This document shows positions 2,710-59,268 of a stretch of DNA of 64,000 nt, one piece after another. The notes under the pieces were generated by a model. It saw only the letters and a program-made list of their open reading frames with translations, did no database searches and was not told the DNA's origin. Origin of the DNA: an uncultured Gammaproteobacteria bacterium (GTDB taxonomy: Bacteria > Patescibacteriota > Microgenomatia > 2-02-FULL-39-11); NCBI GenBank assembly GCA_964354025.1, contig CAYGXQ010000001.1:5963-69962 (forward strand), read 5' to 3'. How positions within the stretch are numbered: position 1 is the first letter of the stretch; each line of letters starts with the position of its first letter. The position numbers and the translations under genes were made by a program.

Positions 2710-3125
2710 TCCAGCCCGATTCTTCTAAGTTGATGTAATTTGTAGATTTTATCGAAGGAAAAAATATCGCTAAAGCCGTATTTCTGCATTACGGCGATAT
2801 TCGCGCAATCGACGACAGAGGTTTTATTTTTTATTTGCTTTCTAAAAAGGCTTAGAGTTTCTTTTTCCAATTCACCGGAAATGGTGTACATCTCCAAATT
2901 AGAATCTTTGACAGAATCTAAAAATTCAATTGCCGTTTGTTGATCTATACGATAACTCAAAAGATTGGCGACTTCATAGACAACAAGATTGATGACGGCA
3001 AATGTTATCTTTTCCCGGACCAATTTCTTATTAATAAATCGTGCCTTTTTATGATTTGCATCTTGAGGATTGATTAACGCATAGAAAGCGTCCGAATCGA
3101 CCAAAACTTTCTTGAGATCTTCCAT
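2706..3125 (-). CDS. vapC: PIN-domain toxin (VapC-like)
   Basis: 139 aa. Acidic residues (LVDSDAF, VVDCANIA, FSFD) are typical of PIN nucleases. It overlaps the upstream small gene by 1 nt. Confidence 0.7.
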   Translation of the reverse strand: MEDLKKVLVDSDAFYALINPQDANHKKARFINKKLVREKITFAVINLVVYEVANLLSYRIDQQTAIEFLDSVKDSNLEMYTISGELEKETLSLFRKQIKNKTSVVDCANIAVMQKYGFSDIFSFDKIYKLHQLRRIGLD

Positions 3126-3394
3126 TACCGGCCTCCTAAAACCGCTTCGGCCAAATATTTATCGTGATTTTTAGAAAGATCTTTCGGTAAACCTTTAAGG
3201 TTCCACTTAGCCAATTTATCCATCAGTTTCCAGGATTGATCTTTCCGGCTTTTTTCTTTAATAATTTTTTTAGCGCCCTTTCTGATCAGTTCTGAAAGAG
3301 TAAGATGTTCGGAACGGGCGAGAAATAGAAGATTTTGGTGCAGCTCTTCCGGAAGATAAATTTGTGTTCTAACCATATTATATACATTATACAT
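3125..3394 (-). CDS. Putative ribbon-helix-helix antitoxin (VapB-like)
   Basis: 89 aa, small, directly upstream of and overlapping the PIN gene. N-terminal TQIYLPEELHQNL resembles an RHH beta-strand. Confidence 0.5.
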   Translation of the reverse strand: MYNVYNMVRTQIYLPEELHQNLLFLARSEHLTLSELIRKGAKKIIKEKSRKDQSWKLMDKLAKWNLKGLPKDLSKNHDKYLAEAVLGGR

Positions 3395-3467
3395 TATACA
3401 TTATATCTGTCAAATAGACAGGATAGTGAATACACGTGAGATTTGATATAATTATCCAGGTTTATTT

Positions 3468-6332: not shown

Positions 6333-7205
6333 ATGGCAGTCAACTCTTTGGTGAAAGAAAGGATCTGGAAGCTGAAGGAATCATACGATACACTGCGTTC
6401 GGGCAAAGACTCGCTTCTTTCGCTGATTGATGAAGCTGAACTGCCGGAAAATGTCTACAATTCCAATGCCATCGAAAACTCCACATTAACGCTTAAAGAA
6501 ACGGAACAGATTCTTATGGATTTGGAAGTGTCCAGGAAAGTATCGGTCCGCGAAGTTTTTGAAGCTAAAAACTTGGGTCGGGTGATCACCTACAAAAAAA
6601 ACATCTTACACCAGCAGGAATTGTCTATCGAGCTGATTCTTTTTCTTCATAAAATGCTTCTAAGCGGTATAAATGATGATATTGCCGGAAGATTTCGCCA
6701 AGACAATGAATATGTCCGGATCGGTACATTTATTGCCATCCCTCCTGAATATGTGGAACAGCGAATGAAGGAGATATTGATAGAATATTCCAGTAATTTT
6801 TCCCTGTATTTTTTGGAGAAAATTGCCAAATTCCATTTGGATTTTGAGACGATCCATCCGTTTAATGACGGAAACGGCCGTCTGGGACGTGTTTTAATAA
6901 ATTACCACCTGTTGTGTCTTGGTTTCCCCCGGATTATTATCCGCCAAAAAGACAGGAAAATATATTATAAAGCGTTTGAAATATACAGAAATGATAAGAA
7001 AACAAAACTGATGGAAAACGTAATATCGCTTGCGATTTTGGAATCCCTACACAAAAGAATTGCCTATTTAAAAGGGATGACGATTATTCTACTGTCGGAA
7101 TATGCCGGTAAACACAAACTGGGTTCTCCGGCGGTTTTCAATGCCGCCAAAAGACAAACCATTCCCGCTTTCAGGGAAAAAGGAATCTGGAAAATCGGTA
7201 TTTGA
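6333..7205 (+). CDS. fic: Fic/Doc family protein (AMPylase-like)
   Basis: Canonical Fic motif HPFNDGNGRLGR. Confidence 0.8.
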   Translation: MAVNSLVKERIWKLKESYDTLRSGKDSLLSLIDEAELPENVYNSNAIENSTLTLKETEQILMDLEVSRKVSVREVFEAKNLGRVITYKKNILHQQELSIELILFLHKMLLSGINDDIAGRFRQDNEYVRIGTFIAIPPEYVEQRMKEILIEYSSNFSLYFLEKIAKFHLDFETIHPFNDGNGRLGRVLINYHLLCLGFPRIIIRQKDRKIYYKAFEIYRNDKKTKLMENVISLAILESLHKRIAYLKGMTIILLSEYAGKHKLGSPAVFNAAKRQTIPAFREKGIWKIGI

Positions 7206-7332
7206 ATTCCTTATGTATCAAGTTAATACAAACCCGGCGTGAATGTAGAACTTCAGATTAAATATTAACGAACGAAGATATTATTTCTTTTATTGATTAT
7301 GCTATGAATCTACATTATTATTTAATACAAGT

Positions 7333-7719
7333 ATGAAAAATAAAATAAAAAGCAAGAAGTTCTTCTTCTTTATTATTTTTCTTTTAGCTAATTTTCCAGG
7401 AATAGGTTATTTGCCGATCGTTAATCATTTTGACTGTACAGGATTGCCAAATAATTGTACAGGAACAGAACTTGTTATCAAACTAAATCCAATCCTTTGG
7501 TTTCCAGAGATATTATCTAAATGGACCAGTGTTTTTCCTGGTAACCTATTTGGAATTAATGTACAGGAATTTGGTCACTTTACTCGTCCGTTTATGCTAT
7601 TTCCCATACTTTCATTTATAAATTATGGAGAAATTATTACAATAATGTTATTGACATTATATTGGATATTACTTTCAAATATTTTCCAAATTATTCTCAA
7701 AAAATTTAAAAGATCATAG
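7333..7719 (+). CDS. Hypothetical small membrane protein, AT-rich
   Basis: ORF only, with hydrophobic segments; no homology recognised. Confidence 0.25.
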   Translation: MKNKIKSKKFFFFIIFLLANFPGIGYLPIVNHFDCTGLPNNCTGTELVIKLNPILWFPEILSKWTSVFPGNLFGINVQEFGHFTRPFMLFPILSFINYGEIITIMLLTLYWILLSNIFQIILKKFKRS

Positions 7720-7807
7720 ATGGCCAATCGTCAATAAAAAGGTTTTAACACCGTAAATGGTCCCCCGCGAAATATACCAAGTTAGAACTTTTGGTATAAT
7801 AAATAAA

Positions 7808-8539
7808 ATGATGAAAGATAAATTTGCCGTTGTTACTGGAGCTTCGACTGGTATTGGCAGAGCCATTGCCGTAGCCTTTGCTAAAAAAGGAGTAAAGGTT
7901 GCCCTTGTGGCCCGGACAAAAGAGAGGCTACAGATGACAAAAGATTTAGTGGAAAAAGCCGGCGGCCAGGCGGAAATTTTCCCAACAGATCTTAGTAAAC
8001 TCGATTCCATCAACGATTTGATTTCCCGGATCAAGAGCAAAACAAAGAAGATAGATATCCTGGTAAACGTGGCCGGTATCTGGCATGGGGAAAATGAGGT
8101 TTATGCCGGAAGAAATTTTGCGGATTTTCCGCAGCCGGTTATTCTTGATACTTTTTTTGTCGGGACAATCGCTCCGACAATTCTTGCCCATGCTTTTGTA
8201 CCTTTGATGGGAAAGGGAAGTAAGATCATCAATATCTCCGGCACCTTTTCAAGCGGGGCAAAAGGCTGGTTGCCTTATTATGTTTCCAAAAGAGCCATTG
8301 AGGATTTGACAATCGGTTTGGCCGAGGAATTGAAGGAAAAAGACATTCAGGTCAACGCCATTTCGCCTTCCGATACCGCTACCGATGCATATAAAAAATA
8401 TTTTCCGCAATATCTGAAAGAGGCGATTAATCCCGAGGAAATTGCCGCTTATGCCGTTTACCTTTGCGAAAATAACCTGACCGGAAAAGTTTTCGTTTTG
8501 AAGAAAGACAAAGAACCCTCTGAAGGCTTTCACCGATAA
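7808..8539 (+). CDS. Short-chain dehydrogenase/reductase (SDR) family oxidoreductase
   Basis: TGASTGIGRAIA Rossmann motif, NVAG, and the YxxxK catalytic pair (YYVSK). Confidence 0.85.
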   Translation: MMKDKFAVVTGASTGIGRAIAVAFAKKGVKVALVARTKERLQMTKDLVEKAGGQAEIFPTDLSKLDSINDLISRIKSKTKKIDILVNVAGIWHGENEVYAGRNFADFPQPVILDTFFVGTIAPTILAHAFVPLMGKGSKIINISGTFSSGAKGWLPYYVSKRAIEDLTIGLAEELKEKDIQVNAISPSDTATDAYKKYFPQYLKEAINPEEIAAYAVYLCENNLTGKVFVLKKDKEPSEGFHR

Positions 8540-16550: not shown

Positions 16551-17030
16551 ATGATCAAAGAATTTTCCGCCGGAGGAATTGTTTATAAGCGTAAAGCGGA
16601 AAGCGTAAAGCGGAAAGCCAGTGATGTTGTTTGGTTAGTATGTCAACATTCGCAGCATAAGGGCTGGGTTTTTCCGAAAGGCTTTATCGGCGACCACCCT
16701 TCGACAAGCTCAGGGCAAGCAGAATCTGAAGAAGAAGCGGCTTTGCGGGAAGTGGAAGAGGAGACTGGCGTCAAAGGCAAAATCTTAGCCAAACTGCCCA
16801 AACCCGCCGGATATTTTTACGTTTGGAAAGGCGAGAAACGTTTTAAAACCGTCTATTATTTCCTGATGGAATATGCAGGAGGAGACATAAAAAACCATGA
16901 TTTCGAAATGATGAAAGTCGAATGGTGGCCGAGGGAGAAAGTGGAAAAAAGTTTGACGTATAAGTCCGATAAGACCGCCTTTGCCGAAGCGTTAAAATTA
17001 TTTAATGATGCGGAGTACAATAAATCCTGA
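16551..17030 (+). CDS. NUDIX hydrolase
   Basis: Nudix box (E)x7REVEEETGV. Confidence 0.8.
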   Translation: MIKEFSAGGIVYKRKAESVKRKASDVVWLVCQHSQHKGWVFPKGFIGDHPSTSSGQAESEEEAALREVEEETGVKGKILAKLPKPAGYFYVWKGEKRFKTVYYFLMEYAGGDIKNHDFEMMKVEWWPREKVEKSLTYKSDKTAFAEALKLFNDAEYNKS

Positions 17031-39742: not shown

Positions 39743-40887
39743 AAATCAATATTGCCGGCGCGGCCACTACCAAATTCGGTGAGCTCTGGCGGACTTCTCC
39801 TCGAGACTTGATCAAAGAAGCGGCCAGTAATGCTTTGGATCAGGCAAAAATAAAACCCTCGGCCGTTAAAGCGGTTTTCGTCGGCAACATGCTTTCCAGT
39901 GCTTTGGGTAATCAGGACCATTTGGGCGCTTTTTTTGCCGAGGAATTGGGGATGCCGGTAGCCGCCATGAAAATAGAAGGCGCTTGCGCCTCAGGCGGTT
40001 TGGCAGTTCATAGCGGTGTGATGGCCATTGAGTCAGGCCTTTACGGGACGGTTTTGGTTTTGGGAGTGGAGAAAATGACCGATCATAAACCTGAAGAAGT
40101 AGCTCAAATGCTGATGGGGGCAGGGACTGATGCCGAACGGGAAGCCGGGGCTACTTTTCCCGGGCTTTACGCGATTATGGCCAGGTGCCACATGCAAAAA
40201 TACGGGACTACCGAAGAGGAGATGGCGCAAGTGGCAGTCAAGAATCATTATCATGCTTCCCTTAATTCCCACGCCCAATTTGTTTTTCCGGTCACTTTGG
40301 AAAAGGTGATGAAGAGTCCGAAAGTGGCCGATCCTCTGAAGCTTTTGGACTGTTCGCCGATTACCGATGGCGCGGCGGCGGTAGTGTTAACAACGACTAA
40401 AGACCAACGAGCAAAGACCAATGTATCCATTATCGCTTCGGTGGTGGCGACCGATACTTTAGGCCTGTCTGAAAGGGAAGATCTGACCGGTTTGAAAGCG
40501 GTGAGAGTTGCCTCCCAAAAAGCCTACCGGATGGCGGGAATTTCCCCGAAAGAAATTGAGGTGGCCGAAGTGCATGACTGTTTTACCATTGCCGAAATCA
40601 TGGCTATGGAAGATTTGGGATTTTTCGAAAAAGGAAAAGCGGCCCGAGCCATCACTTCCGGAAAGACAAAGTTGGGCGGCAGCGGGCCGATAGTCAATAC
40701 TTCCGGAGGGCTGAAAGCCTGCGGTCATCCGGTGGGAGCCACCGGCGTCAAACAGATTGTCGAGATTTACAGTCAGTTAAAAGGAATTGCCGGCCGGAAA
40801 CAGGTTGAAGGAGCAAAAATCGGTTTAACTCATAATGTCGGCGGTAGCGGAGCAACGGCAGTTGTTCATATTTTAATAAAAGGATAA
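39739..40887 (+). CDS. Acetyl-CoA acetyltransferase (archaeal-type thiolase)
   Basis: Catalytic Cys in GACASGG, a C-terminal CGHPVGATG, and N-terminal similarity to SCP-x/archaeal thiolases. Confidence 0.8.
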   Translation: MKINIAGAATTKFGELWRTSPRDLIKEAASNALDQAKIKPSAVKAVFVGNMLSSALGNQDHLGAFFAEELGMPVAAMKIEGACASGGLAVHSGVMAIESGLYGTVLVLGVEKMTDHKPEEVAQMLMGAGTDAEREAGATFPGLYAIMARCHMQKYGTTEEEMAQVAVKNHYHASLNSHAQFVFPVTLEKVMKSPKVADPLKLLDCSPITDGAAAVVLTTTKDQRAKTNVSIIASVVATDTLGLSEREDLTGLKAVRVASQKAYRMAGISPKEIEVAEVHDCFTIAEIMAMEDLGFFEKGKAARAITSGKTKLGGSGPIVNTSGGLKACGHPVGATGVKQIVEIYSQLKGIAGRKQVEGAKIGLTHNVGGSGATAVVHILIKG

Positions 40888-40901
40888 GTATATAAGTATA
40901 T

Positions 40902-41201
40902 ATGATTTCACCTGTAAAAATTTGGCGAAACCAGAAAAGGATAAGACAACTTTTGGGTTTGGAGGGGAAAATCGTTTCCTTTACCAAAATATTCGTGCCG
41001 CCGGCCGGTTTCGAAGCCCAGGCTCCTTATATTGTCGCTTTGGTTAAACTGGACAACGGCCGAAATTTTACCGCCCAGATGGTCGATTGGGAAGAAAAAC
41101 AATTACAGATCGGACAAAAAGTAAAAACCATCCTTCGTAAAACCCGGGACCCGGGAGAAGAAGGGATCATTCCATACGGGATTAAATTCAGACCGATATG
41201 A
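40902..41201 (+). CDS. DUF35 OB-fold protein (scaffold subunit of the archaeal thiolase/HMG-CoA synthase complex)
   Basis: 99 aa; sits between the thiolase and mevalonate kinase genes; lacks the Zn-ribbon. Confidence 0.55.
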   Translation: MISPVKIWRNQKRIRQLLGLEGKIVSFTKIFVPPAGFEAQAPYIVALVKLDNGRNFTAQMVDWEEKQLQIGQKVKTILRKTRDPGEEGIIPYGIKFRPI

Positions 41202-42151
41202 CTCTTACAGTTTCCGCTCCGGGTAAAATCCATCTTTTAGGTGAACACGCGGTCGTTTACGGGAGACCGGCGTTTTTAGCGGCGATTGATAAAAGACTTT
41301 ACGTAAGTATTAAGTATCAGGTATCAGGTATCAGGTATAAAAATAACTCGCTAATTAATTCATCTGAAAAAAAAGATTTGATCCATAGCGCGATTGAAGT
41401 TTTTAAAAAATATTATCAACTAGATAAATTACCTCCAATAGAAATTACCGTAGATTCCCAGATTCCCGTCGGTAGCGGGCTTGGTTCATCGGCCGCGCTT
41501 TCAGCCGCCTTGATCGGCGCACTGATGAAACTTATCAAAAATCTCTGGAATCCGGTAAAAATAAACGAGTTGGTTTACGAAGTGGAAAAAATAGCCCACG
41601 GTCATCCTTCAGGCGCGGATAACACAGCGGTTGTTTTCGGCGGCTTGGTCTGGTACCGGCGTGAATTTGATTTTTTAAAATCCATTTGGAGCTTGCCGGT
41701 TACCGCTTATAAAATCCCTAAATTTCTTTTGATAGATTCGGGCAGACCGATTGAAACAACTAAAAAGATGGTAGAGGCGGTTGCTTCTCAATATCATAAA
41801 AATCCAAAAAAGATGGAAGTAGTTTTTGCCGATCAGGAGAAACAGACAAAAAAACTGCTTTTGGCTTTAAAAAGCGGCGACCGTCAAATTTTGATTAGAA
41901 CGATGAAAAAAGGACAGAGGAATCTGGATAAAATATCTGTTGTTGGTTCATACGCAAGAAAAATTATCAAAGAGATTGAAAAGGCGGGAGGAGCGGCAAA
42001 AGTTACCGGCGCCGGGGGAAAGAAAAAAGGAAGCGGAATGATTCTTGCTTATCATCATGATCCAAGCGTCATCCAGCAAATTGCGGCAATGTTTAAAGTG
42101 TCAGTTTTATCGGTTGATTTAGGAGGAGAAGGAGTGCGGATTGAGTATTAG
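41198..42151 (+). CDS. mvk: Mevalonate kinase (GHMP family)
   Basis: APGKIHLLGEHAVVYG and PVGSGLGSSAA, with a C-terminal GAGGKKKGSG. Contains an in-frame GTATCA hexamer repeat. Confidence 0.75.
   Translation: MTLTVSAPGKIHLLGEHAVVYGRPAFLAAIDKRLYVSIKYQVSGIRYKNNSLINSSEKKDLIHSAIEVFKKYYQLDKLPPIEITVDSQIPVGSGLGSSAALSAALIGALMKLIKNLWNPVKINELVYEVEKIAHGHPSGADNTAVVFGGLVWYRREFDFLKSIWSLPVTAYKIPKFLLIDSGRPIETTKKMVEAVASQYHKNPKKMEVVFADQEKQTKKLLLALKSGDRQILIRTMKKGQRNLDKISVVGSYARKIIKEIEKAGGAAKVTGAGGKKKGSGMILAYHHDPSVIQQIAAMFKVSVLSVDLGGEGVRIEY
41305..41338. repeat. In-frame hexamer microsatellite (AGTATT/GGTATC, about 5.5 units) inside mvk
   Basis: aagtattaagtatcaggtatcaggtatcaggtat, encoding VSIKYQVSGIRYK. Confidence 0.6.
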
Positions 42152-42236
42152 GTATTAGGTATCAAGTATTAAGTATAAAAATACTTTTTTAATAAATACA
42201 TAATACCTAATACTTAATACCTGATACTTTATACTA
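42144..42236. repeat. Palindromic hexamer-repeat hairpin (GTATTA/GGTATC arms) in the mvk-kinase intergenic spacer
   Basis: A left arm of hexamer repeats and a right arm that is its approximate reverse complement, separated by an AT-rich loop. Confidence 0.55.
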
Positions 42237-42238
42237 TT

Positions 42239-43150
42239 ATGTCAATTACAGTAACAGCGCCGGGGAAACTGATGCTCATGGGAGACCATGCGGTGGTTTA
42301 CGGCCGGCCGTGCCTGGTGGCCACCGTTGATAAATATTTGACCGTCAAAGCCGGTTTATCAGATAGTCAAGACGATGTTTTGGCAACGCCCACGGCAAAC
42401 AATCAGACTTTTTTGACCCAGGCGATAAAATTATTCCGGGAACATTACCGGCTGGACAAACCGGTGACGCTCGAGACGGAAAGCGAGTTGGGAAATTACG
42501 GTTTAGGTTCGTCATCGGCGGTGACGGTGGCAACAATCAAAGCCTTAAGCGAGTTATTCCAGCAAAAAATTACGGATAGAGAATTATTTGATCTGTCGTT
42601 TAAAACTGTTTTGTCGGTTCAGGGTTTGGGATCGGGTTTTGACGTGGCCAGCGTCATATATGGCGGCATTATTTATTTTGTTTCCAAAGGTGAAACGATC
42701 GAACGGTTACCGATGACGGATTTAAATTTGGTTGTTGGTTACTCCGGAGTGAAAGCCGATACGGTCAAAATGGTAAAATCGGTGGAAGGAAAAAAGAAAC
42801 AGTACTCGGAAGGGGTAGAGAAAATTTTTAACAGCATTGCCGACTTGGTGGAAAAGGGAAAAAATGCCATCTTTGAAAAAGACTGGCCGACTCTGGGGAA
42901 ATATCTGAATTACCATCAGGACTATCTGGAGGATTTGGGCGTTTCGACGCCAAAACTGGCCGGGATGATTGCGGCGGCCAGGGAAGCCGGCGCCTACGGA
43001 GCCAAGTTGTCCGGAGCCGGCGGAGGAGATTGCATGTTCGCATTAGTTGACCAAACTTCAAAAGAAAAAGTGACCAAAGCAATCGAAAAAGCGGGTGGAG
43101 AAATTGTCGAAATGATTGTTGGAACAGCGAAAGGCGTGAGTCAGGTATGA
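42239..43150 (+). CDS. Second GHMP kinase, probable phosphomevalonate kinase
   Basis: APGKLMLMGDHAVVYG, GLGSSSAV and GAGGGDC motifs. Its position between mvk and the decarboxylase supports the call. Confidence 0.55.
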   Translation: MSITVTAPGKLMLMGDHAVVYGRPCLVATVDKYLTVKAGLSDSQDDVLATPTANNQTFLTQAIKLFREHYRLDKPVTLETESELGNYGLGSSSAVTVATIKALSELFQQKITDRELFDLSFKTVLSVQGLGSGFDVASVIYGGIIYFVSKGETIERLPMTDLNLVVGYSGVKADTVKMVKSVEGKKKQYSEGVEKIFNSIADLVEKGKNAIFEKDWPTLGKYLNYHQDYLEDLGVSTPKLAGMIAAAREAGAYGAKLSGAGGGDCMFALVDQTSKEKVTKAIEKAGGEIVEMIVGTAKGVSQV

Positions 43151-44127
43151 AAGCAACCGCTATCGCACCATCAAATATCGCCTTTATCAAATACTGGGGA
43201 AAGACGGATGAAATCTTGCGTCTGCCGGCAAACAGTAGTATTTCCATGAATTTAAGCGAGTTGCAGACAACTACTACCGTGGAATTTAATAATGATTTAA
43301 ATGAAGACACAGTGCTTATTGACGGGAAAAAAGTTACAGAGCTGAAAAAAAAGCGGGTAACAGAGCATCTGGACCGGATCAGAAAAATGGCCGGAATAAA
43401 TTCGAAAGGGAAAGTAGTCAGTCAAAATAATTTTCCCATGGGAGGAGGATTATCTTCCTCCGCTTCCGCTTTTGCGGCCTTGACCCTGGCGGGAGTGATT
43501 GCCGCCGGTTTGGATTTGACGGAAAAAGAATTGTCAATTTTAGCCAGGCAGGCTTCCGGTTCGGCTTGCCGGTCAATCCCCGACGGTTTTGTGGAATGGT
43601 TGGAAGGTAAAACCAATGAGGATTCCTACGCTGTTTCCCTGTTTCCCCACGACTTTTGGGAGATCTGCGATATTGTCGTTGTTGTTAACACTGCCGAAAA
43701 GGCGGTAACTACTACAGAGGCGCAACAATCGGCCTTTTCCAGCCCGTTTTTCAGGGAAAGATTGAGTAAAATCGACGATAAAATTTCCCTGCTTAAAAAA
43801 TATCTTGGAGAAAAAGATTTCCCTAAATTTGGAACACTCGTGGAAAATGAAGCTTTGGAAATGCACGCTATCATCATGACCTGCCAACCGAGCTATCTTT
43901 ATTGGCTGCCGGAAACGGTCAAATTAATGTTACTCGTGAGACAGTGGCGGAAAGACGGCCTAGCGGTTTATTTTACGATTAATACCGGCCATGATCTGCA
44001 CCTGCTTTGTCAGAAAAATGACGTAGACAGAATAACTCAATTGTTAAAAGTGATCCCGGAGGTAAAAAATATAATAATTAATCAACCGGCAGTCGGGGCA
44101 AAAACAATCGATAAACATTTATTTTAA
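43147..44127 (+). CDS. Mevalonate diphosphate (or phosphomevalonate) decarboxylase
   Basis: N-terminal NIAFIKYWGK, GGGLSSSASAFAAL and RxxSGSACRS motifs. Confidence 0.75.
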   Translation: MKATAIAPSNIAFIKYWGKTDEILRLPANSSISMNLSELQTTTTVEFNNDLNEDTVLIDGKKVTELKKKRVTEHLDRIRKMAGINSKGKVVSQNNFPMGGGLSSSASAFAALTLAGVIAAGLDLTEKELSILARQASGSACRSIPDGFVEWLEGKTNEDSYAVSLFPHDFWEICDIVVVVNTAEKAVTTTEAQQSAFSSPFFRERLSKIDDKISLLKKYLGEKDFPKFGTLVENEALEMHAIIMTCQPSYLYWLPETVKLMLLVRQWRKDGLAVYFTINTGHDLHLLCQKNDVDRITQLLKVIPEVKNIIINQPAVGAKTIDKHLF

Positions 44128-45165
44128 GTGCTTATGCATTTTAAAGATTATTTAGAAGATTCAAAAAAAGAAATTGAAAAAGAGATGTCCATAGTTTTTA
44201 ACGGATGGGAAAAAGAGATTGCCGGGACTAAGCCGAAACTATTGCCGCTATTTCAGGCTTTGGTGGGAAGTATGACCGGCGGGAAGAAATTACGCGGAAC
44301 GCTGGTTAAATTGGGATATTCTCTCATTAATCCCAATCCTCCGCCGGAAATTATTAAGGCGTCTTTAGCTTACGAAATTTTCCAAACTTCCATCCTCATC
44401 CATGATGATATTATTGACAGAAGTGAACTTCGGCGCGGGAAAAAGTCCCTTTACACATTATTAGGTGCTGATCATTATGGCATCTCCCAGGCGATTTGTT
44501 TGGGTGATCTTGGTTTTTTTCTCTCCCTAAAACTTTTTAATTCATTGGATTTTCCTAAAACCAATAAAGAGATGGCTACCCGGTTATTTATCCAAACAAT
44601 GCAGGATACGGTTTTGGGAGAAATGGCGGATATTCAGGAAGCCGGGAAAAAATTAATTTCCGAGAAAAAAATTATTGATATTTATCGCAGTAAAACCGCC
44701 CTCTATACCATCATCGGACCGATGCAGCTTGGCGCGGTTTTGGCTGGAGCTGATAAAAAAATTCTTACTGAGATAAGAAATTTCGGCGAAAATTTAGGAA
44801 TTGCTTTCCAAATATATGATGATATCATAGGAGTTTTTGGTCAAAAAGAAATCACCGGCAAATCGGCCTCATCTGATATTAAAGAAGGGAAAGCCACCTT
44901 ACTATTGATTGAGGCGAGAAAACAGGTCAATCAAAAACAATTAGATATTCTTGACAAATATTACGGTCAAGATAAAGTAACAGAAAATGAAGCGGAAATA
45001 ATAAGAAAAGTTTTTATTGAAACAGGCGCATTGACATGCACAGAAGAAAAAGCTAAGGAATATATGACCGAAGCCAAAGCGCAAATCTCTACAATGAAGA
45101 TAAGCAGTAATATGAGGAAAATATTATTTGAATTAGTAGACGATCTTACCAATAGAGTAAAATAA
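44128..45165 (+). CDS. Polyprenyl diphosphate synthase (trans-isoprenyl diphosphate synthase)
   Basis: First DDIID (LIHDDIIDR) and second DDxxD (QIYDDIIG) motifs. Confidence 0.85.
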   Translation: MLMHFKDYLEDSKKEIEKEMSIVFNGWEKEIAGTKPKLLPLFQALVGSMTGGKKLRGTLVKLGYSLINPNPPPEIIKASLAYEIFQTSILIHDDIIDRSELRRGKKSLYTLLGADHYGISQAICLGDLGFFLSLKLFNSLDFPKTNKEMATRLFIQTMQDTVLGEMADIQEAGKKLISEKKIIDIYRSKTALYTIIGPMQLGAVLAGADKKILTEIRNFGENLGIAFQIYDDIIGVFGQKEITGKSASSDIKEGKATLLLIEARKQVNQKQLDILDKYYGQDKVTENEAEIIRKVFIETGALTCTEEKAKEYMTEAKAQISTMKISSNMRKILFELVDDLTNRVK

Positions 45166-45169
45166 GCCT

Positions 45170-45913
45170 ATGATAAAGGGAAATATTCCCACACACGTCG
45201 CTTTCATCATGGACGGCAACCGCCGGTGGGCCAAAGAACGCGGTAAGCCAGTCTTTGAAGGTCACCGGGAAGGGGAAAAGCGGGTTGAACCGCTGATCGA
45301 TAAAGCGATAGAAATGGGTATTTCGCATCTTACTTTTTGGGCCTTCTCAACGGAAAATTGGTACCGTTCAAGCAAAGAAGTGCAATTCCTCTGCAATATA
45401 TTCAGGTATGTCCTTGATAAAAAATACGACGCATATCACCGGAAAAACATAAAAATAAATATCATTGGTGATCTATCCAAATTTCCGGAAGATATTCAGA
45501 AAAAGACCAAAAAGTGGATGGAGGAGATGAAAAATAACAAGAAAATCACCGTTAATTTTGCCTTAAATTACGGCGGTCGGGACGAGATTATGCGCGCCAT
45601 TAATAAATTGAATCATGAATTAAGAATTAAGAATTATGCCTGTCCGCCATCAGCTATTGCTGAAGGCAATTGCAGGCGGGAATTAGGAGTAACAAAAGAA
45701 GAATTTGAGAAATATTTGGATACGGCGGGACAGCCGGATCCGGATCTGATCATAAGAACCGGAGGCGAAAAAAGACTATCCGGTTTTCTTTTGTGGCAGT
45801 CGGAATACGCGGAATTGTATTTTACCGAATCTTTTTGGCCGGATTTTACTCCGGCGGAATTTGAGAAAGCGGTTGATGATTATTCAAACAGAAAGAGAAG
45901 ATTTGGGAAATAG
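45170..45913 (+). CDS. uppS: Undecaprenyl diphosphate synthase (cis-prenyltransferase)
   Basis: HVAFIMDGNRRWA, FSTENWYR and RTGGEKRLSGFLLWQ motifs. Confidence 0.9.
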   Translation: MIKGNIPTHVAFIMDGNRRWAKERGKPVFEGHREGEKRVEPLIDKAIEMGISHLTFWAFSTENWYRSSKEVQFLCNIFRYVLDKKYDAYHRKNIKINIIGDLSKFPEDIQKKTKKWMEEMKNNKKITVNFALNYGGRDEIMRAINKLNHELRIKNYACPPSAIAEGNCRRELGVTKEEFEKYLDTAGQPDPDLIIRTGGEKRLSGFLLWQSEYAELYFTESFWPDFTPAEFEKAVDDYSNRKRRFGK

Positions 45914-45932
45914 TATCAGTATCAGTATAGAT

Positions 45933-46002
45933 TGTCATTGCGAGCAAAGCGAAGCAATCCCGGTCGAGATTGCCACGGCTACTTCGTAGCCTCGCAATGA
46001 CA
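45933..46002. repeat. MITE-like element copy E3 (perfect 12-nt terminal inverted repeats TGTCATTGCGAG / CTCGCAATGACA)
   Basis: Internal blocks are shared with the copy at 28028. It is preceded by a GTATCA tandem repeat (45911-45930). Confidence 0.55.
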
Positions 46003-46045
46003 TAGGATTGCGTAAGTCTTGGTAGTATAATAAAGGAAATTTTTT

Positions 46046-46882
46046 ATGGATAGAGAGCGCCTGACCATCACTTTAAAAAAATCCCTACTGACTAAAGTAG
46101 ACGGTTTCATCGACGGGACGAAAATCAGAAACCGTTCACACGCCATCGAGTATTTAGTCACCCAAAGCTTATCTCCCCGGGTAAACCAGGCGGTTATCCT
46201 GGTTGGCGGAAAGGGACTGAATATGCGGCCATTTACTTTTGAGATGCCCAAAGGGCTTTTCCCGGTTGGCGGCCGGCCGATTTTAGAGCACATTGTTGAG
46301 AGGCTGAAAAAATACGAGATCAGGGATATCATTTTTTCCATCGGCCATCTGGGAGAGAAAATCAGGGAACATTTCGGCGACGGCAAGAAATTCGATGTCA
46401 AAATCACTTACGTCGATGAAAGCAAAGAAGCGGGTACCGGCGGAGCGCTGGTCTTGGCGAAAAAATATCTTAAAAGCGAATCGTTTCTGGTTATCCACGG
46501 CGATATTTTGATTGACATCAATCTGGCAGATTTAGTGGCTTTCCACAAAGAACAGGGGACGGTCGGGACAATTGCCTTAACCTCGGTCGTTGATCCTTCC
46601 AGTTTCGGGGAAGTGATTTTGCATGGCGCCCTCATCAAGCAATTTATCGAAAAGCCGGAAAAGGGACGGCAGACTTCGCAGTTGATCAACAGCGGCCTCT
46701 ATGTTTTTGACAGGGAAATTTTTGATTATTTGCCCAAAACCGGCAGTTGCCTTTTAGAAGATATTTTTTCCAAGCTGGCCCAAAACCGGCAACTTTCCGG
46801 ATTCCTCTTTGCCGGCCGGTGGGTAGATATCGGCACGCCTCAATCCTACGAAAAAGCCATCAAAGAGTGGGGGAAGATATAA
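46046..46882 (+). CDS. Sugar-phosphate nucleotidyltransferase with an N-terminal ribbon-helix-helix-like extension
   Basis: ILVGGKGLNMRPFTFEMPKGLFPVGGRPIL is the NTP-transferase signature. The first ~40 aa (RLTITLKKSLLTKVDGFIDG...RSHAIEYLV) resemble a CopG/RHH fold. Confidence 0.6.
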   Translation: MDRERLTITLKKSLLTKVDGFIDGTKIRNRSHAIEYLVTQSLSPRVNQAVILVGGKGLNMRPFTFEMPKGLFPVGGRPILEHIVERLKKYEIRDIIFSIGHLGEKIREHFGDGKKFDVKITYVDESKEAGTGGALVLAKKYLKSESFLVIHGDILIDINLADLVAFHKEQGTVGTIALTSVVDPSSFGEVILHGALIKQFIEKPEKGRQTSQLINSGLYVFDREIFDYLPKTGSCLLEDIFSKLAQNRQLSGFLFAGRWVDIGTPQSYEKAIKEWGKI

Positions 46883-58942: not shown

Positions 58943-59268
58943 ATGCCCCGCCTTTGGCGGGGAATTATCAAATTACAAATTTCAAATTACAAAAAAAGAC
59001 CCTCGTTACTTAAACACAAGTTATTATCAACTCGTGATCAAGGAACGAAGGTCTTAAATAAAAAAGAGACCTCCGCGGTCCCATCCTTTTTCCCTATACC
59101 GTATAGTATAGGGCTCTTGGGGTCGGCTCCGTCCGCCAGCTGGCGGACGACATCGACTGTTGTATTTTTACGGTTCAACTTCCGTCCCACATTTTGGCGG
59201 GAAGCTCGTGGATCGTGACTCCACTCAAACGCTTTTATGAATTGTATTAAACATTATACCAAAGCTTG

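Follow-up and report, generated by a model that had tools for sequence, protein, structure and literature searches.

Heptanucleotide repeats within and behind a GHMP kinase gene in the mevalonate operon of a relative of Microgenomates and Gottesmanbacteria

How can perfect tandem arrays, whose unit is not a multiple of three, persist at fixed sites of essential genes across a whole clade, without any change in length? The question is raised by a mevalonate-pathway operon located at 37.4–45.9 kb (+ strand) of a 64,000-nt stretch of contig CAYGXQ010000001.1, hereafter the window. The genes come in the order HMG-CoA reductase (HMGR), HMG-CoA synthase (HMGS), thiolase, a DUF35/OB-fold protein, a GHMP kinase called mvk (41198–42151, +), a second GHMP kinase (kinase 2, 42239–43150, +, with Pfam domains GHMP_kinases_N and C), diphosphomevalonate decarboxylase, a polyprenyl synthetase and UppS. 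The mvk gene carries a short tandem array in frame, and arrays of the same unit face each other, as a hairpin, in the spacer that separates it from kinase 2. The reading that we favour, with a probability of about 60%, is that both tracts are heptanucleotide simple sequence repeat (SSR) arrays, which would arise by misalignment in a 7-nt register and be kept where they are harmless, the hairpin being a quasi-palindromic by-product. Judging from sequence comparisons, they are probably local members of a population of 7-base repeats that pervades Gottesmanbacteria and Microgenomates.

The coding array and the spacer hairpin

The original prediction described in-frame tandem repeats of the GTAT type at 41305–41338, in the coding sequence of a conserved enzyme, and we find the same coordinates and translation. 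The array (+ strand) reads AAGTATT AAGTATC AGGTATC AGGTATC AGGTAT and is translated as VSIKYQVSGIRYK, i.e. (V)SIKYQVSGIRY(K), residues S37–Y47 of ...YVSIKYQVSGIRYK... The unit had been taken for a hexamer, in mvk and in the spacer alike, which is ruled out by Tandem Repeats Finder: the program gives a period of 7 in mvk (41314–41338, GTATCAG ×3.6, 100% matches), and the six-base pieces into which the tract had been cut all differ from each other. The consensus unit of the mvk and spacer arrays is RGTATYA, 7 nt long. The pattern RGTATYARGTATYA occurs nine times in the window, always at the mvk tract or in the spacer, while 0.01 occurrences are expected from shuffled sequences; the excess of AAGTAT is confined to the arrays, with no genome-wide enrichment.

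Since the period is 7 and not 6, the argument that the mvk tract could change its length without a frameshift fails. The gain or loss of one unit leads to a stop at codon 50, while changes of three units keep the frame, and the gene minus three units has the short loop found in some relatives. A run of GTATCAR units can be read in any of the three frames without meeting a stop codon; with GTATTAR units, each frame is closed within seven codons. In the mvk tract, three of the four units are the C variant GTATCAG and the TAA of the single T variant is out of frame. The spacer arms consist mostly of the T variants GTATTAG and GTATTAA, and the first in-frame TAG is the stop codon of mvk itself.

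Homologues of Mvk number in the thousands, and the nearest with a name belong to Candidatus Microgenomates and Gottesmanbacteria, within the Candidate Phyla Radiation (CPR). The relatives that we compared are L001 (the nearest, 74% protein identity), L002, and 80 further loci that a scan picked out of species-representative genomes; as L003, among the latter, is a duplicate of L001, 81 related loci are counted besides the window. The suggestion that the tract occupies a variable surface loop holds up: in an alignment of 36 sequences it lies in a hypervariable stretch that follows the conserved YVxIK strand, and in the AlphaFold2 model of Mvk (mean predicted local distance difference test, pLDDT, of 91) residues 41–51 are coil between strands 25–40 and 52–55, the array also covering the end of the first strand (S37–Y40). 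The pLDDT of the 41–50 block is 62, and the segment is predicted to be a permissive, low-confidence loop at the tip of a β-hairpin.

The tract is not the lineage-specific insert that had been considered. Several relatives share the exact length of this segment (with the peptide IKNQRSKIKDK, for instance), it aligns without net gap with the Mvk of Methanosarcina (6mde), and in L002 the corresponding DNA is (AAAATCA/AAGATCA/AAGATAA)n. The L001 loop aligns throughout, with (CAAGTAG)×2.4 in register with the (CAGGTAT)×3 of the window; where the window has ATCAGGT three times, L001 has GACAAGT/AGCAAGT, the same two substitutions being repeated in each unit. This register and these shared substitutions indicate that the tract is an orthologous array under concerted evolution, not a new insertion.

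The stretch on the 3′ side of the array (41339–41363, +), AAAAATAACTCGCTAATTAATTCAT, is similar to the loop of the intergenic hairpin, and 41306–41363 matches 42144–42201 as a direct repeat, D1, of 58 nt with 79% identity. Neither the tract nor its 3′ stretch folds by itself in RNA folding. D1, and the 15-mer GTAAGTATTAAGTAT shared with the L001 spacer, prompted the idea that the left arm of the spacer was recently copied, ectopically, into mvk. We rejected this origin as the main story, since the L001 loop aligns throughout and has its own heptamer array in register; exchange between the mvk tract and the spacer is possible.

The length of the tract differs between relatives. No variation is seen within the species, where the sole second assembly, and the only other contig to encode an identical protein (Logan contig L203, possibly from the same sample), is 100% identical over 2,474 nt; the nearest other relative is already at 74% protein identity. 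All 82 of the 82 orthologous open reading frames (ORFs) are intact, including those that bear arrays.

The left arm and the reverse-complement right arm announced for the spacer are both present. The spacer measures 87 nt from the mvk stop to the ATG of kinase 2 (42239). The left arm, GAGTATT AGGTATT AGGTATC AAGTATT AAGTAT (42140–42178, +), takes in the end of the mvk coding sequence, down to its stop TAG (42149–42151). It is followed by an A+T-rich loop, AAAATACTTTTTTAATAAAT (42179–42198, +), with a small inner stem in the RNA fold, and by a right arm (42199–42236, +, within a reverse-complement array at 42195–42236) made of the reverse-complement heptamers ATACATA ATACCTA ATACTTA ATACCTG ATACTTT ATAC. 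Tandem Repeats Finder detects a period of 7 on both sides (42140–42176, ×5.3, and 42195–42227, ×4.7). The long imperfect hairpin expected from these arms withstands the folding test that had been suggested: the RNA at 42130–42245 folds with −33.6 kcal/mol (z = −5.5), and none of 200 shuffled sequences does as well. In the minimum-free-energy fold, the end of the mvk coding sequence with its stop is paired, in the outer stem, with sequence whose last paired base is 42230, 8 nt before the ATG, and no Shine–Dalgarno motif (no GGAG or AAGG) is found between the stem and this ATG.

Arrays across the clade and elsewhere in the window

We counted tandem arrays of at least three copies, with periods of 4 to 12, in the window and the 81 related loci (985 kb in total), and compared the counts with first-order Markov simulations. 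Arrays of period 7 number 85, against 0.33 expected, an excess of about 250-fold. The other periods give far smaller figures (observed versus expected, 15 versus 0.33 for period 8, 6 versus 2 for period 6, and 2 versus 0 for period 9). The units are highly diverse, and many are unrelated to one another. Of the 100 arrays of period 7 or 8, 77 lie wholly within predicted ORFs, in DNA whose coding fraction is 0.91, and one array that was scored as intergenic proved to be coding.

The coding arrays recur at hot spots, whose positions we give on the proteins of the window. They are found at residues about 109–123 of HMGR (arrays in 12 loci), about 348 of HMGS (7 loci), about 217 of thiolase (6 loci), about 36–44 of Mvk (5 loci, including the window) and about 195–206 of the same protein (14 loci), and about 146–169 of UppS (14 loci, including the window). 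The distance between the conserved anchors on either side is the same with and without an array at Mvk-195 (17 and 17 amino acids), in HMGR (15 and 15) and at HMGS-348 (20 and 20). Because the lengths are equal at these three of the six hot spots, the arrays overwrite the sequence there, and add no length to it.

On the coding strand, the units are rich in A (43%), with AAGT, GTCA and ATCA enriched. Where a unit would bring a stop into frame, one variant unit prevents it, as with the AAAGTTA that stands among AAAGTTT units in UppS of L031. Identical units make up 4.8% of the pairs of arrays within a genome versus 0.9% between genomes, and a permutation test at ≤1 mismatch gives p = 0.09; sharing of units between the arrays of one genome is suggestive only. 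Insertions of 450 nt that seemed to be present in mvk of several loci turned out to be an artefact, the match having been joined to the paralogous downstream kinase.

The same loops also hold palindromic inserts that are read in frame, such as CGCCAGCTGGCG in L001 (4540–4552). Peptides of the SPASPGLG- or ERSEAESRDL...SLTLGMTQ- type in Mvk loops look like translated miniature inverted-repeat transposable element (MITE)-like sequences; the DNA itself was checked in L001 only. Loops with such palindromic inserts occur in the Mvk relatives P0014, P0037, P0018, P0022 and P0004, and at Mvk-195 in L017 and L052.

The spacer has its counterparts too. The mvk/kinase-2 junction is overlapping (ATGA and similar) in 30 relatives, and amounts to 0–6 nt in 10 more; a tight coupling of the two genes is the common state, and probably the ancestral one. 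The spacer of L001 is a shorter form of the element in the window (54 versus 87 nt, with about 2+3 versus 5+6 units), whose loop is largely conserved; it folds with −9.2 kcal/mol (z = −0.16), no better than shuffled sequences. In about a dozen other loci, spacers of 60–120 nt consist of a tandem array of 7- or 8-mers, a loop and an inverted array, beginning at the stop codon and ending just before the ATG. At least four families of unrelated units are involved: AGTATTA in the window, L001 and L058, CAAATCTA in L014, L059 and L061, GTTACTT in L017, L031 and L060, and CCAATTA in L008. Of ten relatives whose spacers were folded, eight give z-scores from −2.7 to −6.6. Similar hairpins lie at other junctions of the operon, such as (CTAGCGT)n between the OB-fold gene and mvk in L002.

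We also note the mvk/kinase-2 spacer of L050 (5588–6248), 659 nt long, which is packed with different short arrays and a MITE-like element. Within it, AGGGTTTAGGGTTTAG is identical to TTTAGGG, the telomere unit of the plant type, and L070 has (CCCTAAC)n at 3051–3075; the identity with a telomere unit is probably a coincidence.

In the window, six period-7 arrays of at least three copies are found. The second coding one of the operon, (GAATTAA)×3 in uppS (45615–45636, +), encodes HELRIKNY and sits at the UppS hot spot common to 13 other loci; the peptide HELRIKN recurs in the Mvk loop of the relative P0008. Outside the operon, (AAGCGKA)×4.6 at 16587–16618 encodes YKRKAESVKRKAS in frame, close to the N-terminus of a 159-amino-acid ORF, whose only NCBIfam match is the 8-oxo-(d)GTP phosphatase MutT1, with 34 bits, far under the cut-off of 475. 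Two arrays are intergenic: (TATACAT)×3.6 at 3381–3405, which is GTATAAT on the other strand, and (AATTACA)×4.3 at 58963–58993, directly after a G+C-rich hairpin, ccccgcctttggcgggg, and a tRNA-like gene recognised by eye.

The third run of the original prediction, placed at 45911–45930, is there as well and is the sole true hexamer: AGTATC ×2.8, period 6 (45911–45928, +, or 45912–45928 according to Tandem Repeats Finder), beginning in the uppS stop TAG and abutting a MITE-like element. Since L001 has TAGTATAG at this position, where the window has TAGTATCAGTATCAGTATAG, the run is specific to the lineage of the window. The 14-nt spacer between the thiolase and OB-fold genes is filled, from stop to ATG, by ATAAGTAT ×2.4, with a period of 8 according to Tandem Repeats Finder (40884–40902, +); this array is absent from L001, whose spacer measures 6 nt there. 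The MITE-like element after uppS, GATTGTCATTGCGAGC...CTCGCAATGAC, and the promoter-like stretch that goes with it (45931–46010, versus about 9090–9170 in L001) are identical at 117 of 126 positions. This intergenic block is either constrained or undergoing homogenisation, since four-fold degenerate sites are only 66% identical.

Regarding the genes themselves, both GHMP kinases score above the TIGR00549 mevalonate-kinase cut-off of 163 bits (186 for the upstream one and 192 for the downstream one). Since the downstream kinase fits mevalonate kinase models better, the repeat-bearing kinase may perhaps be a diverged paralogue, possibly a phosphomevalonate kinase. In L002, the second kinase (6965–8422, 485 amino acids) carries a fused N-terminal GNAT acetyltransferase domain. 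The polyprenyl synthetase of the window (44128–45165) is only 34% identical to that of L001 (7320–8375), with 29% identity at four-fold sites, against 75–94% for the flanking genes, which looks like a non-orthologous replacement within a syntenic operon.

Origin of the arrays

In the mechanism that we propose, misalignment during replication in a 7-nt register would make the arrays and homogenise them, while quasi-palindrome (template-switch) correction and out-of-register repair of the hairpin would keep the arms of the spacer complementary. Selection would act as a filter only, so that arrays would persist at gene junctions or in permissive, in-frame, stop-free segments of proteins. This filter would account for the presence of the stop-free GTATCAG in the coding copy and of the stop-containing GTATTAG in the spacer, where it supplies the stop of mvk. 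The spacer hairpin, an expanded version of the weaker inverted repeat of L001, would have been inserted in a formerly overlapping junction, and is most likely a by-product and not a dedicated regulator. Since its 5′ arm holds the mvk stop and its 3′ arm ends so close to an ATG that lacks a Shine–Dalgarno motif, translation of kinase 2 would stay coupled to that of mvk, whose terminating ribosomes would melt the stem. The geometry of the hairpin probably preserves this coupling, and the stem may also shield the 3′ end of mvk.

Several observations weigh against this scenario. No polymorphism in copy number has been seen, the only other assembly being identical. Slippage by a single unit is predicted to be lethal in the coding array, and perfect, length-neutral coding arrays are hard to explain by the gain and loss of units; for this reason some length-preserving homogenisation must be assumed. 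The distant L058 shares a hairpin of the AGTATTA type at this junction, and another unit is used there by L059, a close relative of L058. Moreover, (GTATYAR)n hairpins follow stop codons in unrelated metagenome contigs; both observations would fit a mobile or selected element too. Last, the aligned spacers of the window and L001 are identical at 46 of 54 positions (85%), versus 66% of four-fold degenerate sites (n = 651), which hints at constraint, although the value is inflated by the gapped alignment of repeats.

A bolder hypothesis, which we put forward tentatively and regard as rather unlikely, is that a length-preserving process, so far unrecognised, operates in Gottesmanbacteria: at the fixed positions of the six hot spots, it would repeatedly turn short segments of essential genes into perfect tandem 7-mers, swap their units in concert between lineages and build hairpins from stop to start at gene junctions. 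Because single-unit slippage would be lethal, ordinary microsatellite expansion would not do, and either a templated patch mechanism (transient 7-nt misalignment, conversion from a common template) or selection for peptides with a 7-residue periodicity would be needed.

It may also be that selection maintains the spacer hairpin as an RNA element between the two cistrons, i.e. a stabiliser of the messenger, an RNase processing site, or a device that couples or attenuates translation and thereby sets the ratio of the two kinases. The original prediction leaned this way in proposing an attenuator or a processing site; we consider it unlikely, and a regulatory role of the hairpin is unproven. The strength of the fold, its extension from the stop codon almost to a Shine–Dalgarno-less start, the better conservation of the aligned spacer than of synonymous sites in the comparison with L001, and the significant folds of the hairpins, unrelated in sequence, that about a dozen relatives have at this junction would all be expected of such an element. 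On the contrary, the scan for terminators and promoters gives no call of either kind within the spacer; UUUAUACUAUUAUG comes after an A+U-rich stem, whereas an intrinsic terminator has a G+C-rich stem and a run of U; and Rfam covariance models give no match at E ≤ 1 in 40800–46200. The antisense strand is equally stable (−33.3 kcal/mol) and G–U pairs are unbiased. Strand asymmetry was considered as a test of a role at the RNA level; both strands being alike, it is uninformative. The homologous spacer of L001 folds no better than chance, the 40 relatives with an overlapping or nearly overlapping junction do without any hairpin, and similar hairpins are found at other junctions of the operon.

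Another hypothesis is that the spacer is a small mobile palindromic element, MITE-like or of the kind of the paired repetitive extragenic palindromes (REP) known as REPINs, with arms that by chance consist of heptamer arrays, and that the mvk tract is a half-copy of this element. D1, which links the mvk tract to the left arm and the loop, and the presence of the same unit family in L058 and not in its close relative L059, can be read in this way. So can the results of a metagenome scan, in which (GTATYAR)×3.6 was found in at least 120 contigs, with 24–71% G+C; in 15 of the 120 loci listed, an inverted partner of the same unit lies within 150 nt, usually starting from a stop codon, and these pairs lie between co-directional or convergent genes. 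However, the number of matches is uncalibrated with respect to other heptamers, any of which might give more than 120, and the listed contigs also hold 59 other arrays of period 7, versus 6 of period 8. The loops are not conserved between instances. The inverted arms of the spacer come with no flanking duplication visible in 42125–42250 that would mark a target site; the window has this single hairpin, and its unit pattern is restricted to two loci in 64 kb. The number of units in the arms varies among relatives, as in an SSR, and the mvk tract is orthologous to the array of L001, as discussed above. A mobile element is thus distinctly unlikely in our opinion.

Two related contigs from outside the CPR were noticed in the same scan, L186 (1800–1897) and L103 (about 994–1035). 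They share the same gene junction, and one has a full (GTATTAR)n hairpin from stop to ATG, the other a direct array only.

A role of the arrays as targets of a protein acting in trans, for example a regulator of translation similar to S1, Csp or CsrA, is improbable. Binding of this sort was proposed for the TAACTGA repeats of Beggiatoaceae (PMC4679880), which overlap upstream stops and lie a few nt before Shine–Dalgarno-less starts as the spacer array does; GGTATCA is one base off the reverse complement of TAACTGA (GTTATCA), and four runs of the AGTAT type cluster within 5 kb of the operon. But the relatives have unrelated units at the same positions, so there is no conserved sequence to recognise, most arrays are inside coding sequence, and no candidate for the protein was found. 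As for a phase-variation (contingency) switch, turned on and off by ±7-nt slippage in mvk, the unit is indeed not a multiple of three and one unit more or less truncates the protein, but the tract has only 3.6 perfect copies, in a housekeeping isoprenoid gene of a pathway operon, the two assemblies are identical and all 82 orthologues have intact ORFs, so that we give this idea hardly any credit.

Whichever process is at work, repeats of a non-triplet unit are expected to be excluded from essential genes, and here a clade tolerates or generates perfect 7-nt arrays in core enzymes of isoprenoid synthesis, as well as in the tightest gene junctions of an operon, in uncultured bacteria with reduced genomes. 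If slippage is the cause, the arrays carry an inherent risk of frameshift and signal peculiarities of replication and repair; if a length-preserving templated process is, they point to a mutational mechanism that has not yet been described. The presence of hypervariable, low-complexity peptides at predictable sites matters for the alignment, the phylogeny and the structure prediction of CPR proteins. The hairpins that take the place of overlapping stop/start junctions offer ready-made examples in which to study how translation is coupled across a structured spacer.

Comparison with known repeat systems

According to the accounts of Mrazek 2007 given in PMC4679880 and PMC4692102, heptanucleotide repeats are the most abundant class of long SSR in many prokaryotes, and slippage tied to the footprint of the polymerase was proposed as their cause. 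As far as these accounts go, the SSRs of Mrazek, Guo & Shah (2007) resemble the arrays described here, with head-to-tail 7-nt units that are over-represented, and many different units per genome. In our loci, at least three tandem copies of 7 nt are found, and period 7 is favoured over the neighbouring periods. As to copy number, the spacer arms have 5+6 units in the window and about 2+3 in L001, a difference between species; within the species, L203 is identical. In the same accounts, units that are not a multiple of three are expected mainly outside genes, whereas here about three quarters of the arrays are in frame in housekeeping enzymes, and they sit at fixed hot spots, three of which show no change in length.

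The closest parallel in position is provided by the TAACTGA repeats of marine Beggiatoaceae, cyanobacteria and Bacteroidetes (MacGregor 2015, PMC4679880). In Beggiatoaceae, they overlap upstream stops, precede starts that lack a Shine–Dalgarno motif and are occasionally read through as LSVISYQ (PMC4679880). The spacer array has the same position with respect to the stop of mvk and the start of kinase 2, and copies in the reverse orientation are read as peptides with a 7-residue period in both systems, LSVISYQ there and VSGIRYQ here. This is a resemblance and not an identity, since the unit is GGTATCA here and GTTATCA there. Besides, one unit dominates the genome described there, in which the repeats are direct but for a single indirect one and the coding copies lie at the ends of proteins (PMC4679880), unlike our loci, in which many units occur, inverted pairs are frequent, and the coding copies lie in internal loops and helices of enzymes.

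Contingency loci share with the mvk tract a non-triplet repeat within an ORF, in which slippage by a single unit shifts the frame; the mvk tract differs from them by the housekeeping class of its gene, its low copy number and the absence of observed polymorphism. In some operons of E. coli, the hairpins formed by REPs and by bacterial interspersed mosaic elements (BIMEs) stabilise the messenger between cistrons, serve as processing sites or affect coupling. For the spacer hairpin, possible effects on messenger stability and coupling are a functional analogy. The REP, BIME and REPIN palindromes of proteobacteria (PMC3116915) are, like the spacer, imperfect palindromes that lie in operons just after stop codons. 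However, REPs have a conserved sequence of 20–40 nt, hundreds of copies and a REP-associated tyrosine transposase, RAYT (PMC3116915), whereas the arms here are tandem 7-mers, with a sequence that is not conserved between instances and a single copy in 64 kb.

Heptamers known as short tandemly repeated repetitive (STRR) sequences are reportedly found in cyanobacteria, in the work of Mazel et al. in 1990. The G-rich heptamers GGGAATC/GGGGAYT of Xanthomonas and Nostoc vary between close species, and some form inverted pairs (Rehm 2015, PMC4692102). As in our loci, these arrays are intergenic, variable in length and sequence, and the inverted pairs are able to form stem-loops, but they are G-rich and have been discussed as quadruplex formers, whereas the A+T-rich units described here cannot form quadruplexes. 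In our search of the literature, we found no report of heptamer arrays for CPR bacteria, no paper that brings the CPR and SSRs together, and none that mentions these repeat sequences. Compared with known heptamers, which are of the same basic nature, the present case stands apart in that in-frame arrays in core enzymes predominate, that they recur at fixed hot spots, three of which are neutral in length, and that hairpins running from stop to start are frequent.

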